64,000 nt of DNA, from the NCBI GenBank assembly GCA_965203325.1, contig OZ241875.1, positions 3,968,001 to 4,032,000 of the forward strand, given 5' to 3'. The DNA comes from a bacterium (GTDB lineage: Bacteria > UBA8248). The notes under the pieces are model-generated. The model was not told the DNA's origin. It saw only the letters and a list, made by a program, of their open reading frames with translations, and did not search any database. A program made the translations under genes and the position numbers. Shown piece by piece: positions 57,365-64,000 of the stretch. Position 1 is the first letter of the stretch. Each line of letters begins with the position of its first letter.

Positions 57365-58468
57365 CTACACCGCCCGTACGACCGCCGCGACGGGGCCGCC
57401 GCCGGGAGGCCCCTGGTGTTCGGCACCGCCCGAGACGTAGGTCATCGTGTCGCCGACGATGGATGACACCACGGCGTTCACGACAGAGCGGGCGTGGCGC
57501 GTGTTGTTGATGTCCGAGTCATCGAGCATCGTGTGCCGCCGCCCGCGCACCAGGCCGTCGGGGGAGGCCTCGCACTTGGCGAAGACGTTCACGACGCGCG
57601 CGCGCTGCTCGGGCGCCAGCGACCACTCGAACGCGACCCCTGCGTTCACGATGGCCTCGCGCACGGCGTCGCGGTCGATGGCGTCTCCCATCACGCTGTG
57701 GCCGACGACGAGGTCGCCGCCCCAGGCCGCGCTGTTACCGATGACCATCGCCTCGTTGCACATGAGCTCGATTCCCGCCGAAGTCGAGGCGACGCCGGAT
57801 TGGAGCGACCAGTCCGCACAGATCACCTCATCGCTCAACCGGCTCTCGGCCACCTCGCCCGCCGCCAGGGCGACCCCCAGCGCCGATGCGCCGCGCGAGT
57901 AGCCCATCGATTTATACGTGTCCTCCGTGCAGACGCTCTCCCCGCGCCTGGCGGCGTCCGCCATGCGCTCGCCTGTCAAGAGCGGGCACTTCACCTGGAC
58001 GAAGTGCAGGTCTTCGGTGCTCTCGATCTGCGCCTCTTTCATGAGCCTTCGCACGAGGTTCGCCGTCGCGCGCACCTGCGCCATGCGGCCCATTTCTTCG
58101 GGCAGGAAATCCGCCGTGTGGCCCGAGGCGATGGCGAGGCGCTTGGCGCGCCCGTCGCCCGCGCCGTTCTCCGACTTCGTGAACACGGAAAAATGCGGGC
58201 ACATGACGCCTTCCGTTCCGCCGGACATGATAAGGGCGATCTGCGCCTCCACCTCCTCGCGGGTCTTGCCCATCGCGCGTGAGAAATAATCGAGCAGGAC
58301 GAAGTTGCTGAACCCGCGCGAGAAATCGTTCACGCAGCCGTTGCCCTCGGTCTTGCCCATGATGCCGACGACATCTTCCGCCCGGCATTCGCCCCCCTCG
58401 ATGAGAGCGGCCACGCCTGAGATGTCGTCGGGCGAGTCCATCGCCACGCGGAACAAGTCGGCCTGCAT
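57365..58468 (-). CDS. atzD: Cyanuric acid amidohydrolase-like ring-opening amidohydrolase
   Basis: KTEGNGCVNDFSR, MSGGTEG, QVKCPLLT, SMGYSRGASALG, STSAG, FAKCE, RHAR and YVSGGAEHQGP motifs. Confidence 0.85.
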   Translation of the reverse strand: MQADLFRVAMDSPDDISGVAALIEGGECRAEDVVGIMGKTEGNGCVNDFSRGFSNFVLLDYFSRAMGKTREEVEAQIALIMSGGTEGVMCPHFSVFTKSENGAGDGRAKRLAIASGHTADFLPEEMGRMAQVRATANLVRRLMKEAQIESTEDLHFVQVKCPLLTGERMADAARRGESVCTEDTYKSMGYSRGASALGVALAAGEVAESRLSDEVICADWSLQSGVASTSAGIELMCNEAMVIGNSAAWGGDLVVGHSVMGDAIDRDAVREAIVNAGVAFEWSLAPEQRARVVNVFAKCEASPDGLVRGRRHTMLDDSDINNTRHARSVVNAVVSSIVGDTMTYVSGGAEHQGPPGGGPVAAVVRAV

Positions 58469-58841: not shown

Positions 58842-59804
58842 TCACCTCTTATATATACAAGTCCCCGCATCCCCGCGCAGGGCGGGCACCGCATCCTCCA
58901 AAGCCGCGATGTGCACGCGCTCGCCGCCACCCTCGAGAAAGCGGATCGCCGCCTCTATCTTGGGGCCCATGCTGCCGGGCGGGAAGTGGCCCTGGGCGTG
59001 GTATCCCTTTATCTCGTCGAGGGAGATTCTTTCCAACTCGCGCTGCTCGGGCGTCCCGAAGTGGACGGCCACCCTCGGCACGGCGGTGAGGATCATCATC
59101 GTCTCGATCCCCAGCACGTTCGCCATGAGGGCCGAGGTCAAATCCTTGTCGATGACGGCGGCCAGCCCGCGCCGCGCGCCGTCGGCTTCGCGCACGACGG
59201 GGATGCCCCCGCCGCCGCCCGCGATGACCACCGCCCCGCTTTTGGCGATCGTCTCGATGAGCGAGATGTCCACGATGTGTTTCGGCGCAGGCGAGGGAAC
59301 GACGTGCCGCCAGCCGCGTCCTGCGTCCTCGCGGAACGTCCAGCCCATCTCGCGCTCATAGCGCCTCGCCTCTTCTTCCGTGTAGGTGTAGCCCACGAAC
59401 TTGGTCGGCGCGTCGAAGGCCGGGTCCGCCGGGTCGACCTCCACCTGCGTCAGGAGACACACCACGTGGCGGGGGTCACCCGCGCGCCTGAGCGCGTTCT
59501 CGAACGCCTGCATGAGGAGATAGGCGATGCCCCCCTGGCTGTGGGCGACGCAGATGTCGAGCGTCATGGGGGTGACCTGCTCGCTCGACATCGCCTGGCG
59601 CATGAGTATCTTGCCGACGACGGGGCCGTTCCCGTGCGTGATGATGAGTTCGTTTTTGAGCTGCAAGAGGGGGAGCAGGGCACGGCCGGTCGCTGCGGCG
59701 ATGGCGGCCTGTTCCGCCGCGGTGCCGCGTATCTCGGGCGGGTGGGTCGCGTTGCCGCCGACGGCGACGAGCAGGCGGCCTGGAAGATCGGGCGGGGGAG
59801 CCAT
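58842..59804 (-). CDS. arcC: Carbamate kinase
   Basis: VAVGGNA, THGNGP.VG, PTKFVG, VVPSP.P, GGGGIPV, VIDKD and GSMGPKI motifs. Confidence 0.93.
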   Translation of the reverse strand: MAPPPDLPGRLLVAVGGNATHPPEIRGTAAEQAAIAAATGRALLPLLQLKNELIITHGNGPVVGKILMRQAMSSEQVTPMTLDICVAHSQGGIAYLLMQAFENALRRAGDPRHVVCLLTQVEVDPADPAFDAPTKFVGYTYTEEEARRYEREMGWTFREDAGRGWRHVVPSPAPKHIVDISLIETIAKSGAVVIAGGGGGIPVVREADGARRGLAAVIDKDLTSALMANVLGIETMMILTAVPRVAVHFGTPEQRELERISLDEIKGYHAQGHFPPGSMGPKIEAAIRFLEGGGERVHIAALEDAVPALRGDAGTCIYKR

Positions 59805-59973
59805 GTCGGATTCTCCCGATGAACCCCCGGCCTCGGGACGCGGTGGCATACAAGTGCAGTCGCAAGACCCGCGGCGCGCCCCGGGCCGGGAGTGACATCT
59901 TACAACAACGGCGGGGTCGGGGGGTAGGGAATTTTATGACGAATCCCTTCCACATCGATCGGGTTCGACCCCG

Positions 59974-60316
59974 CCGTCATTCCGGCGAAAGCCGGAATCC
60001 ATTTTGACTTTCCAACCAGGCGGGGTGGCCATAACCTTGTTGTTGCGCGGCGTCCGGATGCGGAATTCAGAGAATTCGCCTTTCGTTTTTGTGTTCGATT
60101 CCGATCCTCCCCGCCAGGAGTAAAGACGTCCGAACGAGGAGGAGAAAAGGCAAAGGCGAAAATGGATTCCGGCTTTCGCCGGAATGACGGCAAGAGCGAA
60201 GGGCCGCATGAATGGGATTGTCCAAAAGCCTGGTGGGGCATTGTTTTACCCCCTCTCTCCAGTCGGAATCGACGCCGGAATGACGGCTGTAGGGGCGGTT
60301 CGCGAACCGCCCCTAC
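59974..60316. repeat. CGTCATTCCGGCGAAAGCCGGAATCCA inverted pair plus a GTAG REP
   Basis: Unit at about 59975-60001, its reverse complement at about 60163-60189, and a degenerate copy at about 47825. Confidence 0.8.
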
Positions 60317-60509
60317 GGAAACCCCACACCCTCCTTCTCCGCTCCCCCCAAACCCTCATTCCCCGCCCGCGTCAAACCCGCATTCATCGCTCCCGTCAAA
60401 CCCTCATTGATCAATCGCGTTTGACCCCCGCTCCCCGATAATTCATAATCGAACCATCACTGGATCATGCGACCCGTTTCAGAAGTTGCGCGCAAGTTCA
60501 AATAAAGGG

Positions 60510-60542
60510 TTGACAAAACCGGAAAACTTGCCGCACTATCAT
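60510..60542 (+). promoter_or_regulatory. Putative promoter of the hairpin array and lipoprotein gene
   Basis: TTGACA at 60510-15 followed by CACTAT (18 bp spacer) or TATCAT; an inverted TGTCAA lies at 60546-51. Confidence 0.45.
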
Positions 60543-60570
60543 ATATGTCAAGCAACAGACGTGAGCAGTA

Positions 60571-61379
60571 ATCACAGGGCCGCCCGCTCGATGCAACACT
60601 GACCCATCCGTGAAGAACGGAGAGAGCGGGAACCCACGAGAGAACCTGCTCTCACGAATTGCCTGACAGCCCGGAAGACGACGACCCAGAAGGTTCCGGG
60701 CATAAGCAGTAAAAATCACGAGGCTAGAGGACTCAACCCACGATGCAGCACGCCACAAAACCCCCTCCAGTTTCGTGATCAATAGAAGAGCAGGAAAGCG
60801 GCAGGCCCGGCGGAAGCCGGGGAAGCAGTAAATCACGAGGCCAGAGGACTCAACCCACGGCGAACCACGCCACCAATCCCCCTCCAGTCTCGTGAAGCGT
60901 AAGGCCCGGCGGCCCGCGCAGTCGGCGGCGCGCCGGGAAGAACGGCAAGCCCGGCGAAAGCCGGGAGATGAAATATCACGAGGCCAGAGGACTCAACTCA
61001 TGATGCACCACGCCACAAATCCCTCTCCAGTCTCGTGATCGATTCAAGGAAAGGCCCGGCAGGAGCCTGAAACGAAAAATTCGGCTCGGGGCCAGGAAGT
61101 TTTTTATCACGAGGCTGGAGGACTCAAACATCATGAATCCTGACCAGAATCCCACACCAGTCTCGTGGATAAGCCGGTCACCGGCCCGGGCGCGTGAGTC
61201 CGGGCCGGCGGCCGCGCGCTCCGGCCCCGGTTCGATGATTCGATGAAACGATAGAAGCCCGATAACGAAGGATAAGGAAAGTCGGAAAGTCAAAGAAAGG
61301 AGGTCAAATCCGAACACTACAGTTTTGTTGGTTGCAAAGCTCTTTAATATCACGAGACTAGGAGGACTCAAAAGTGATG
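60571..61379 (+). repeat. Array of SD/anti-SD hairpin units (ATCACGAG.CT.GAGGACTCAA ... CCTCCAGTCTCGTGA)
   Basis: Full units at 60715-60779, 60832-60895, 60975-61039 and 61106-61170; a degenerate unit at 60571-60614; a half unit at 61349-61379 that is the RBS/start of the downstream gene. Confidence 0.9.
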
Positions 61380-64000
61380 AAACTTGACAGAAACAAAATC
61401 TTTTCATTCATGCTGGCGGCTGCCTTCGCGCTGACGCTGGCGGGCTGCGGTGGCGGCGGCACTGCTACTGCGCCTGACGATGATGGCGGCACGATAGTGG
61501 AGACACCTTATAGCAAAGCGGTTGCGGCAATCGCGGCAGCCGAGACGGAGGCAGATGCGCGGGCGGCGGTCACCACGGCAGTGGCCGCCGGCATCTCGGG
61601 CACGGAGCTCCAGGACCTGAACACGAAGGTCGCCGAGCGCGTGGAGGCCCTGGCCCTGATGGCCCGGATCGATGCGCAGAAGATGGCGATGATGAACGCG
61701 GCCGGCATGATCGACACGTCCGACCTGACGACTCAGGCTGCGATCAATGCGGCCGAGGCCGCCATCGCCGTGCTGAAGAGGGCGATCGCCGCCGCGGCCG
61801 ACGTCGACGACACGTCGATGTACGACGCGCAGGTGACCGCGGCCGAGACAGACGTGGCGACCGCGCAGAGCGCTCTGGACCATGCGGCCCAGACGATGGC
61901 GCTCATGAATGCCGTCGATGACCTTCAGGCAATCGACCTGGCCGACCTGTCGACAAAGGAGAAGATCGACGCCGCCCAGGGCGCCATCGACGCGCTTCAG
62001 ACGGCGCTGGACAACGCGACAGAACTGAGCGCTGCCGAGAAGACCGCGGCCATGACCGAGCTGGGGACCGCCAATCGGGCCGTGGCGAGTGCGCAGGGCA
62101 GGTACGACACCGCAGCCCAGAAGAAGGCGCTCGCCGATGCCGTTGCCACCCTGGCCGCTCTCGACCTCGACAACCTGATGACGCAGGCGCAGATCGACGC
62201 GGCCGTGGCAGCCATCACCGGGGTTAATCTGGCTCTGCAGTCGGCGACCAATCTGACCGACGCCGAGAAGCTCGACGCCACCGTCGACGTGACGGTGGCC
62301 CAGCGGAAGGTGGACCGTGCGGAGACGGCTCTCGACGAGAATGTCGGCCGGCAGCGCATGGCGCTGATGGAAGCCGGCACGGCCCTTGCCGCCATCGACC
62401 TCGACGATCTGGACACGCCGGAAAAGATCACCGCGGCCAACGATGCCGTTAACGCGCTCAAGGCGGCGCTGGACGGGGCGACCCACCTGAGCGATTCCGA
62501 AAAGGCCACGTACCAGACCCAACTGAACGAGGCCACGGAGGACGTGAGGATGGCGCAGACCGGCATGGACCGCGCCGGTCGCATGATGGCCCAGCGCACG
62601 GCGATCACGAGTGCCGTCACGATGGCCCGCACTGCGGTCGCGGGTGTGAGCGACACCTCGACCGATAGCGAGGTTGCTGCTGCGGACGCGGCGGTTGCCG
62701 CTCTCAAGAAGGCGATCGACGATGCGGTAGACCTTCCCGAAGGCGATACCGACGTTGCCAGCGCCAGGGGAACGCTCGCCACGCTCGAGCCGCAGCTAGC
62801 CGCCGCCAAGACGAGCCGCACGGCCGCGTTGGAGGAAAAGGCCAAGGCGGATCGGGCGGCCATGGCGAAAACCGGCAAGGATCTGCACGCGGCGCTGGGG
62901 CCGCCTGCTGCGGCTGACACGACCGCGCTGGACAACATCGAGGCACTAACAGCAAGCTCCTTGGTGACATCAGGGGCGACACCAGGCCTTACGATCGACG
63001 CCGTTCAAGGAGCGGGAACGCTCCACGATACTGATGCTGCCGGAAACCCAGACGCCGTGCGCCTCAATCCTGGCGATTCCGCCGGATCGTTGGGCGGTTG
63101 GGAAGGCACGAACTATGCCCGTTCCCAGGGTAGTGGTAGCGCGATGGTCACCAACGAAGCCAGGATCTACACCAACAAGGGTCCAGGGACGACCCGGCCC
63201 TTTAGCAATACAGAGACAAACGGAAAGTACTTGCTCATAACCGCATCGGGCGCGACTAAGGGTCACGTGCTGCTGGGCGATACCACTTCGGGGCAGGAAA
63301 GCCCGGTCACGCGCGCCAGTGCTCCCGCCTTCACGCACTCGGGAACACAGACTCACCAAGTGCCCGACGAGAGCGACGCATTCTACACCAGCGGCACCTA
63401 CGACGGCGCGCCTGGGCGATTCCGTTGCGTGGACACGTCTGCTACGGATCGTTGCTCCTCGACCAACGACGGCACAGGCAGGGTGAGTGCCTTGGGTGGA
63501 ACTTGGCATTTCAAGCCCGATGCCGGCGCGATGGTGATGGAGGCCGATGCCCACTACCTGTATTACGGCTGGTGGGTGAGTAAGGACGATGAGGGCAAGC
63601 CGACGGCGGCCAGCGCGTTCGTGGGTAGATTTGGGACCCCCGGTGATGACTCCGCCACTGACGATGATGGCCTCAACGCTGGATGGACCGGTGGCTTTGA
63701 CGCTCTCACCGGCGCGGCGGCTCTTACCGGTTCGGCGACCTATTCTGGCAATGCCGCCGGCAAGTTCGCCATAAGCAACCCGTTCGACGGCACCGGCAAC
63801 GGCGGTCACTTCACGGCGGACGCCGAGTTTCAGGCGAAGTTCAGTGGTTCTTCTGGCGTCGGTATATCCGGCACCATCGACAACTTCCGGCTGAACGACG
63901 GGACCGAAGACCCGGGCTGGAGCGTGTCGCTGGGGCTCAGGGGCTTTGGCACCGACGGAGCCATCGGTGCTGCCGTGGACATTCCCACGACGACTGTTAA
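61377..64000 (+). CDS. Large surface lipoprotein (3' truncated): helical repeats plus a TbpB-like beta domain
   Basis: Own translation: MKLDRNKIFSFMLAAAFALTLAG|CGGGG lipobox and GGAGG RBS. About 5 Ala-rich ~75-aa repeats (e.g. IDLADLSTKEKIDAA), then YLYYGWW, GSATYSGNAAGK, HFTADAEFQAKF and ISGTIDNF. No stop before the window end (>874 aa). Confidence 0.88.
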   Translation, partial: MKLDRNKIFSFMLAAAFALTLAGCGGGGTATAPDDDGGTIVETPYSKAVAAIAAAETEADARAAVTTAVAAGISGTELQDLNTKVAERVEALALMARIDAQKMAMMNAAGMIDTSDLTTQAAINAAEAAIAVLKRAIAAAADVDDTSMYDAQVTAAETDVATAQSALDHAAQTMALMNAVDDLQAIDLADLSTKEKIDAAQGAIDALQTALDNATELSAAEKTAAMTELGTANRAVASAQGRYDTAAQKKALADAVATLAALDLDNLMTQAQIDAAVAAITGVNLALQSATNLTDAEKLDATVDVTVAQRKVDRAETALDENVGRQRMALMEAGTALAAIDLDDLDTPEKITAANDAVNALKAALDGATHLSDSEKATYQTQLNEATEDVRMAQTGMDRAGRMMAQRTAITSAVTMARTAVAGVSDTSTDSEVAAADAAVAALKKAIDDAVDLPEGDTDVASARGTLATLEPQLAAAKTSRTAALEEKAKADRAAMAKTGKDLHAALGPPAAADTTALDNIEALTASSLVTSGATPGLTIDAVQGAGTLHDTDAAGNPDAVRLNPGDSAGSLGGWEGTNYARSQGSGSAMVTNEARIYTNKGPGTTRPFSNTETNGKYLLITASGATKGHVLLGDTTSGQESPVTRASAPAFTHSGTQTHQVPDESDAFYTSGTYDGAPGRFRCVDTSATDRCSSTNDGTGRVSALGGTWHFKPDAGAMVMEADAHYLYYGWWVSKDDEGKPTAASAFVGRFGTPGDDSATDDDGLNAGWTGGFDALTGAAALTGSATYSGNAAGKFAISNPFDGTGNGGHFTADAEFQAKFSGSSGVGISGTIDNFRLNDGTEDPGWSVSLGLRGFGTDGAIGAAVDIPTTTV

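Follow-up and report, generated by a model that had tools for sequence, protein, structure and literature searches.

The window analysed here, a 64,000-nucleotide (nt) stretch of contig OZ241875.1 from a bacterium of the lineage UBA8248, ends within a gene for a surface lipoprotein, and the leader of that gene carries an array of four hairpin units (Table 1). The 5′ arm and start codon of each unit resemble the translation-initiation region (TIR) of the gene, with its Shine-Dalgarno (SD) word, and the 3′ arm is complementary to that region; we refer to the two parts as decoy TIR and anti-TIR. Such arrays were found in 11 of the 22 other genomes of the genus (12 of 23 counting that of the window) and on two metagenome contigs, one array per genome and always 5′ of the surface-lipoprotein gene. 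The 14 leaders from these 12 genomes and two contigs share a promoter box, a 5′ stem region, two to four units, a GC-rich hairpin, the free SD-like word AAAGGAGG and the TIR itself. The array was not found in 19 genomes of other genera of the same family or in 16 more distant relatives. When 185,579 species genomes were scanned for the pattern, multi-copy matches were confined to this group, with about 57 single matches elsewhere against about 70 expected by chance, and a metagenome scan with the TIR word returned the two contigs only.

Table 1. Features of the lipoprotein leader and gene (positions in the window; TIR, translation-initiation region; SD, Shine-Dalgarno word; ORF, open reading frame; uORF, upstream ORF)
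Feature	Position	Strand	Remarks
Palindromic box GAAGTTGCGCGCAAGTTC	60482..60499	+	18 bp; directly 5′ of the −35 hexamer; inverted repeat I6
Putative promoter	60510..60539	+	TTGACA 60510-60515, 18-nt spacer, CACTAT 60534-60539
Hairpin unit 1	60716..60778	+	Decoy TIR 5′ arm with AGAGGA, ATG loop, anti-TIR 3′ arm; −18.5 kcal/mol
Unit 1 mini-ORF	60743-60778	+	MQHATKPPPVS, stop
Hairpin unit 2	60833..60895	+	ATG-less 'GGCG' class, GCG at 60860; −24.6 kcal/mol
Unit 2 frame	60860-60895	+	ANHATNPPPVS, stop; GCG replacing ATG
Hairpin unit 3	60976..61038	+	ATGATG resembling the GTGATG of the true start
Unit 3 mini-ORF	61000-61038	+	MMHHATNPSPVS, stop
Hairpin unit 4	61107..61168	+	Last-unit type; strong SD GGAGGA, only partly paired
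Unit 4 uORF	61133..61246	+	37 amino acids, MNPDQNPTPVSW...; crosses the 3′ arm of the unit, reading through TGG, and then the GC-rich hairpin
GC-rich hairpin	61175..61214	+	Inverted repeat I5; kept in 13 of 14 leaders; no U-tract behind it
Free SD-like word AAAGGAGG	61296..61303	+	55 nt 5′ of the TIR; no usable start codon after it
True TIR ATCACGAGACTAGGAGGACTCAAAAGTGATG	61349..61379	+	SD 61360-61365, GTG 61374, ATG 61377
Surface-lipoprotein gene	61374..64000	+	949-residue ORF continuing beyond the window end; lipobox LAGC

Comparison of the units with the start of the gene accounts for their composition. The TIR is a fifth copy of the unit 5′ arm with one added base: the 5′ arm and the spacing of the units align with it, as does their ATGATG with its GTGATG, the unit loops align with the first codons of the gene, and unit 4 and the gene share 82% identity over their start regions (repeat D7). 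Since both the start regions and the loops align with the gene start, each unit is a TIR copy to which a 3′ arm has been joined. The copy comprises ATCACGAG..GAGGACTCAA, a start codon and about eight codons like MKLxxNKI, and is followed by an anti-TIR arm whose consensus, CCTCCAGTCTCGTGA, is the reverse complement of TCACGAGACT-GGAGG, that is, of the TIR minus one bulged A. This alignment bears out the description of the units in the initial annotation, made from the DNA letters of the window, as mimics of an SD and start codon with an anti-SD in the 3′ arm. The same annotation had counted a degenerate 'unit 0' further upstream; its string MQH-stop is present at 60591-60602, yet it has neither a 5′ arm nor an SD and lies within a different conserved stem, and its ATG occurs in only five of the 12 genome leaders (G000, G016, G017, G007 and G022), so that its status as a unit does not stand.

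The window contains four copies of the repeated 5′ arm ATCACGAGRCYRGAGGACTCAA (22 nt), where 0.01 would be expected, four being reached in none of 100 shuffled sequences, and no further copy forms a hairpin elsewhere in the single-contig 4.39-Mb genome. A lone match with two mismatches elsewhere in that genome (L005) lacks a 3′ arm and was rejected as a unit. The TIR word [AG]TCACGAGACTAGGAGGACTCAA is identical in all 14 leaders save for its first base and occurs once in the genome, where no other gene has such a ribosome site. The segment TCACGAGACT immediately 5′ of the true SD is likewise invariant in the 14 leaders; the function of an SD does not require an upstream segment of this kind. 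The 3′ end of the 16S rRNA of the same genome carries the canonical CCUCC, and throughout the leader a start codon lies 4-13 nt behind an SD-like word only in units 1, 3 and 4, so that three of the four units in the window possess an SD and start of their own. No conserved long ORF was found on either strand of the leader, which argues that it is not a mis-called protein gene.

In all, 47 units were found, and removal of four exact duplicates left 43 distinct units that were aligned using MAFFT; the 12 genomes contribute 27 internal units and 11 units of the last type, the latter being found in 11 of the 12 genomes as well as on both metagenome contigs. A covariance model (R1) built from these same units found no additional units in the genome of the window and, in the genus, only the known arrays and three single divergent units in G014; as the model was trained on the units it is searching for, only its absences are informative. 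Parsimony steps, computed on a tree of 31 distinct internal units, amount to 1.0-1.4 per column in the arms, 2.55 in the loop and 6.7 in the flanks, and the spacers between units are barely alignable across the 12 species that keep the array.

The three divergent units of G014 (L027, L028 and L029) lie singly 5′ of three other lipoprotein genes. Two of them contain a GTG-started mini-ORF (VKKRAAKPPPVP, stop), and in the third ACG replaces the start, both the SD and the anti-SD being degenerate. These single units fold no better than shuffled sequences (z = +1.5 and −0.1) and were for this reason rejected as a simple model of how the array works. The unit may predate the array and be tied to the lipoprotein family. 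In G022 a second lipoprotein gene, 3 kb 3′ of the first (L026), has a diverged TIR copy and the same signal peptide, with no array.

The anti-TIR arms match the true TIR better than they match the decoys beside them. A 3′ arm placed on the TIR forms 14-16 base pairs (bp), typically 15 bp with one bulge, at predicted energies of −19 to −27 kcal/mol, and in 29 of 38 units (24 of the 27 internal and 5 of the 11 last units) this duplex is preferred to that with the unit's own 5′ arm. Mean duplex energies of the 3′ arm are −23.2 kcal/mol with the TIR, −21.9 kcal/mol with its own 5′ arm and −23.3 kcal/mol with the 5′ arm of the next unit. The difference can be traced to individual positions: of the 43 hairpins, 39 have G-U at pair 19-70 and 23 a mismatch at pair 21-68, and the 3′-arm bases of both pairs are Watson-Crick partners of the TIR. 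Among the units of the window it is the 3′ arm of unit 2, CCCCCTCCAGTCTCGTGA, that best matches the true TIR (duplex −27.4 versus −22.0 kcal/mol with its own arm), and this arm is paired with the TIR in the minimum-energy fold of the leader; the loop of the same unit contains an additional GGCG:CGCC stem. The 3′ arm of unit 4, CCAGTCTCGTGG, lacks CCTCC and ends in TGG instead of TGA. In four genomes (G013, G017, G007 and G022) the last-unit arm has changed from CCAG to CTAG, creating a perfect 11-mer with the TIR, and in three of these four the change weakens the hairpin of the last unit itself.

Folding predictions for whole leaders place the TIR in such duplexes. The leader of the window folds more stably than its shuffled counterparts (z = −6.2), and in all 14 leaders the TIR is paired with the 3′ arm of a unit in the minimum-energy fold, the predicted probability of its being paired ranging from 0.72 to 0.89 and the predicted cost of opening a 36-nt TIR window at 37 °C from 9.3 to 16.9 kcal/mol. 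When the folded sequence ends before the TIR, all hairpins are local in 6 of the 14 leaders, and in the other 8 at least one unit is out of the local register; several full-length folds also take a shifted register, that of G020 having none of its three units locally paired. By prediction, then, the SD of the gene is sequestered through mutually exclusive pairings.

From this anatomy, and from the conservation, complementarities and predicted energetics that go with it, we consider it about an even proposition that the array is a decoy-TIR/anti-TIR translational switch controlling the lipoprotein gene. If so, helices formed by the units and the true TIR would compete with one another along a chain, and the leader as a whole could adopt either of two registers that differ little in energy. 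In the local register every decoy would keep hold of the anti-TIR of its unit, leaving the true TIR open; a 3′ arm is transcribed some 30 nt behind its partner within the unit, and this register should therefore arise before the other as the RNA is made. In the shifted register, which is the predicted ground state, anti-TIR n would pair with decoy n+1 or with the TIR, closing the gene and exposing one decoy. Provided that the transcript is as drawn here and that the registers interconvert in the cell, the leader would set the amount or the duration of translation per mRNA. As the input that shifts the register we infer ribosomes, most plausibly binding at an exposed decoy and above all at the upstream ORF (uORF) of the last unit, whose strong and only partly paired SD, together with its course across the anti-TIR arm, makes it the best candidate for a ribosome-driven reset.

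Several observations weigh against a switch of this kind. The number of units varies from two to four between species, and for 6 of the 14 leaders the predictions single out an ATG-less decoy as the one most exposed at equilibrium, so that mini-ORF translation cannot be a general means of reset. RNAalifold returned an empty structure for the MAFFT alignment of the units, and pairs were then counted for a structure specified by hand; covariation in this structure is weak, the observed number of paired cells being reached by 434 of 500 shuffles. The arms are simply conserved, and the pairings therefore rest on complementarity and energy models, while long-range pairing predictions for RNAs of 600-950 nt are uncertain. 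The units are, moreover, related by descent, and counts such as the 39 of 43 G-U pairs thus overstate their independent support.

Transcription of the leader can be judged from metatranscriptome contigs of relatives in two libraries (X1 and X2), which cover stretches of it. One record of 502 nt (X2, record 10) links unit 3, by way of unit 4 and the TIR, to the coding sequence, one (X1, record 1) matches the unit 1 region with three differences, and a further one (X1, record 3) covers another part of the leader. Some stretches of the leader are without a contig in X1 and X2, which counts neither for nor against their transcription. These contigs lend weak support to co-transcription of the long leader with the lipoprotein gene; they carry no information on strand, ends or level and could include DNA carry-over, which again tells against a confident reading of the array as a switch.

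A more elaborate version of the switch would be a multi-stage RNA strand-displacement relay, in which occupancy of the first exposed decoy by 30S subunits or ribosomes is passed on unit by unit, through shifts in the register of the anti-site arms, over about 600 nt to the true site. The initial annotation had envisaged a multi-step attenuation cascade driven by translation of the mini-ORFs. The steps from unit to unit are physically plausible, given that the next unit's 5′ arm (−23.3 kcal/mol) and the true ribosome site (−23.2 kcal/mol) are as good partners for a 3′ arm as its own 5′ arm (−21.9 kcal/mol); the peptide-driven form of the cascade is not supported. We regard the full relay as an unlikely elaboration. 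Were it correct, the mRNA would be a bistable device, either decoy-bound (silent, and perhaps stabilised) or lipoprotein-producing, with the mini-ORFs and start-less decoys as its input terminals.

The leader might instead be static, its hairpins and SD-like words serving a highly expressed surface protein as mRNA stabilisers or ribosome recruiters (by 5′ stem-loop protection or STAB-SD-like binding of 30S subunits) with no switching, and the mini-ORFs being inert relics of TIR duplication. The hairpins are indeed very stable and the peptides appear unselected, and the free word AAAGGAGG is present in all 14 leaders, 55-62 nt 5′ of the TIR and with no start codon at a usable distance, which makes it a candidate STAB-SD-like word or ribosome standby site. 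According to an extract in PMC4113751, the STAB-SD of cry3A (Agaisse and Lereclus 1996) belongs to SD-like leader sequences that do not start the main protein, and AAAGGAGG agrees with that sequence definition, as the extract gives it, in being SD-like, located in the 5′ untranslated region and start-less. The SDs of the units are paired and mostly followed by ATG and do not, for these reasons, fit it. By comparison with the STAB-SD, any stabilising role against 5′ exonucleolytic decay is putative here, and the bacterium does not belong to the Firmicutes for which an RNase J1 pathway is known. A static leader also leaves unexplained that the 3′ arms match the TIR better than they match their own partners, that TCACGAGACT is invariant, that last-unit arms have shifted towards the TIR at the expense of their own hairpin, and that the loops are conserved (2.55 versus 6.7 steps per column). 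On balance we think this explanation unlikely.

Somewhat less likely still is the proposal that the mini-ORFs encode genuine leader peptides, whose polyproline-paused translation would melt the hairpins in turn and produce multi-step attenuation. The strings themselves are real: a script translation reproduces exactly all five that had been reported, including the GCG that replaces ATG in unit 2 and the TGG through which the unit 4 frame reads on to 37 residues. Among the 27 internal units an ATG occurs in 20, from which the frame runs to the stop codon of the arm in 18 cases; all 11 last-type units have an ATG (13 of 13 with the metagenome contigs), and the CCUCC of the 16S rRNA makes the SD-like words meaningful. 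Some substitutions preserve starts and stops. ATG and GTG interchange, an in-frame ATG lies 3 nt upstream in units of L112 and G014, and in the start-bearing unit 2 of G014 TGA has become TAA despite the loss of a pair, whereas the start-less unit 2 of G017 has TGT for TGA, its 5′ arm having changed so as to compensate. The sole indel within the first 29 codons of the last-unit uORF is one of 3 nt, frame-breaking indels being found near the end of this frame in G013 and G016 only.

Against selection for the peptides stand the pattern of substitution and the origin of the coding strings. Substitutions are distributed over the three codon positions as 21:15:23 (15:11:17 in the loop codons alone), with no excess at third positions, and the three ATG columns require 2, 5 and 0 steps, so that they are conserved no better than the loop around them. 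Substitutions in the last-unit uORF are located in the loops of RNA hairpins, a pattern of RNA structure rather than of coding. The expectation that frame and stop would be conserved in homologous arrays is borne out by the 18 of 27 internal units that combine ATG with the arm stop; it fails in the 7 of 27 that lack ATG (G000 u2, G012 u1, G016 u1, G010 u1, G011 u1, G017 u2 and G010 u3) and in two whose frames are shifted by +1 (G007 u2 and G022 u2). The start has been lost four times independently with the hairpins retained. The first five of the ATG-less units form one orthologous class in five genomes, which has not decayed: its GGCG:CGCC loop stem gives hairpins of −24 to −28 kcal/mol.

The polyproline runs were suggested to pause the ribosome. 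They are present in two units of the window, one of which is the ATG-less unit 2, and among the 20 ATG-bearing internal units PPP occurs in 4, the others having PSP, PST or PPT, so that a pausing role finds no footing. PPP is the anti-SD CCCCCTCC read in the frame of the mini-ORF, and the TGA of the arm is complementary to the TCA at the beginning of the TIR word. The initial M is accounted for by the copied start codon of the TIR, and the tail P-P/S-P-V-S-stop by translation of the anti-TIR arm in that frame, so that polyproline may be nothing but an in-frame anti-SD and the peptides look like by-products of a TIR copy joined to an anti-TIR arm, not functional products. Mini-ORF translation was also supposed to melt the unit's own hairpin; the hairpins are closed at −15 to −28 kcal/mol with the SD buried, which should block initiation at the mini-ORFs and leave only an exposed decoy to bind ribosomes, so that such melting cannot come first. 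Judged by the sequence comparisons, selection for mini-ORF translation is weakly supported, start codons may matter in some units, although the evidence for this is weak, and the unit 4 uORF is the best candidate for real translation. A wider caution follows from these units, namely that short ORFs can be repeated, kept across species and equipped with an SD, an ATG and a stop in frame, and yet stem wholly from constraints at the RNA level.

A platform for a trans-acting factor, with a translational repressor or a small RNA recognising the extended TIR and being titrated by, or loaded cooperatively on, the copies, seems to us improbable. It would explain why the copied stretch of the TIR extends to about 45 nt and takes in loop positions that stay conserved without being paired, and the uniqueness of the TIR word in the genome is as expected for a dedicated regulator. 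Decoys locked in hairpins are, however, a poor design for a sponge, no candidate factor emerged, and the anti-TIR arms are left unexplained. The GGA of each unit lies in a stem, unlike the exposed GGA of RNAs that titrate CsrA/RsmA (CsrB, RsmZ), and no Rfam match to such RNAs was obtained. Functionless, neutral tandem duplication of the start region would accord with the two to four units of different species and with the loss of some starts, but is scarcely credible when the flanks evolve 2.6-6.7 times faster than arms and loops and the array is kept in 12 species.

The decoy/anti-TIR switch that we favour shares elements with several characterised systems. In the attenuation of ermC, ermB and cat, a short upstream ORF with its own SD is combined with an anti-SD that alternates between partners, the regulated SD being closed in the ground state. 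The array would be closest in its working to ermC and cat, sharing with them an anti-SD, alternative pairings and an SD that is closed in the predicted ground state, with an upstream SD and start in those units that carry them. It differs in that the upstream segments are two to four tandem copies of the gene's own TIR over about 600 nt, that a quarter of the units are start-less, that the gene encodes a surface lipoprotein and that no conserved stalling peptide was found, the internal units showing no conservation at the peptide level. The hok mRNA, with its metastable 5′ hairpins, fold-back inhibition and mok uORF, and the long-distance interaction of phage MS2 that couples translation of coat and replicase are further precedents; they resemble the array in setting a kinetic against a ground-state fold, in closing a ribosome-binding site (RBS) over a long range and in the capacity of upstream translation to open it. 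Both are single elements with another biological purpose, in contrast to the tandem decoy/anti-site repeats described here.

A surface-lipoprotein mRNA is also the target in the meningococcal fHbp thermosensor, in which, according to an extract of Loh et al. 2016 (PMC4999090), two anti-RBS repeats pair with the RBS and lower translation. The repeats described in that extract are 6-nt CUGCCU sequences within the coding region that form weak, heat-labile pairs and have no decoys, whereas the anti-TIR arms here are about 16 nt long, lie upstream, pair at −19 to −27 kcal/mol and are each accompanied by a competing decoy. The short or imperfect melting helix of RNA thermometers (fHbp, ROSE, fourU) was not found at the TIR, its predicted duplexes with the anti-TIR arms being of 14-16 bp and stable by their predicted energies. 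Upstream RBSs that act by translational coupling or ribosomal occlusion appear in an extract of a report on Sinorhizobium meliloti (bioRxiv 10.64898/2026.05.12.723736). As in the array, the upstream SD and start sites of that extract modulate the main ORF, sometimes with no detectable product; they overlap or adjoin the main RBS, whereas the sites here lie at a distance of 200-650 nt, from which RNA pairing would be their means of action. In an Rfam 15 scan of positions 59800-61700 none of 11 sub-threshold matches reached its gathering score, the best match within the units being c-di-GMP-I-GGC (22.9 bits versus a gathering score of 59), a GNRA-hairpin fragment. The open-access literature yielded no paper using the wording of a decoy ribosome site.

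Upstream of the units, the promoter string is retained with at most nine mismatches per 31 nt in all 12 genomes and both metagenome contigs, from which we infer its promoter role and a transcript start near position 60547; the pair TTGACA/CACTAT was not listed by the promoter scanner, owing to that program's −10 rule. The core of the adjacent palindrome, AAGTTGCGCGCAAGTT, or a near variant of it, is found in all 12 genome leaders, with two copies in G014, and GAAGTTGCGCGCAAGTTC is probably an operator for a dimeric transcription factor acting on the lipoprotein gene. A terminator-like site was sought at the GC-rich hairpin behind unit 4 and none was found. Between 100 and 200 nt 5′ of the promoter, positions 60325-60420 hold three to four tandem 24-nt repeats (CAAACCCnCATTC...CGT, family D4) that could bind a regulator.

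Further upstream lie a perfect 28-bp palindrome, GTAGGGGCGGTTCGCGAACCGCCCCTAC (60289-60316), and a repeated word, CGCCGGAATGACGGC (60177-60191 and 60273-60287), which resemble repetitive extragenic palindromic (REP) intergenic repeats; a similar GTAGGGGCG...CGCCC palindrome is present in L005. A match to the Bradyrhizobiaceae small RNA BjrC68 at 59900-60005 (26 bits), below the gathering score of 39, probably reflects no more than a REP-like hairpin. Two adjacent genes occupy the minus strand at 57365-58468 and 58842-59849, one of the AtzD/TrzD ring-opening amidohydrolase family (E = 2.5e-148) and the other of the amino-acid-kinase family (carbamate-kinase-like); the two may be a pair for the degradation of cyanuric acid or barbiturate.

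The lipoprotein itself contains alanine-rich repeats and a conserved C-terminal domain. Searches of Pfam, NCBIfam and PDB by sequence and profile gave no match to it, and none of the 311 homologues found has a Pfam domain. An AlphaFold model of the C-terminal 309 residues has a mean pLDDT (predicted local distance difference test) of 47.9, and a language-model search of the ESM Atlas for look-alikes of the C-terminal domain pointed to a TbpB_B_D/FHBP_C-like barrel (score 0.93), which is a lead only. About ten paralogues are encoded in the genome of the window (G000, L101-L109), with the signal peptide and C-terminal domain conserved and the alanine-rich middle highly variable; across species, the mature part of the lipoprotein that follows the conserved leader and signal peptide is exchanged.

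If the array does act as a decoy-TIR/anti-TIR switch, it would represent an undescribed class of cis-regulatory RNA, a variant of translational control by SD sequestration. The gene's own ribosome site would have been copied so as to buffer several anti-sites, yielding two near-isoenergetic folds with opposite outputs. The gene under such control would be that of a fast-evolving surface lipoprotein of uncultured bacteria, and surface lipoproteins of this kind often take part in host or phage interaction.

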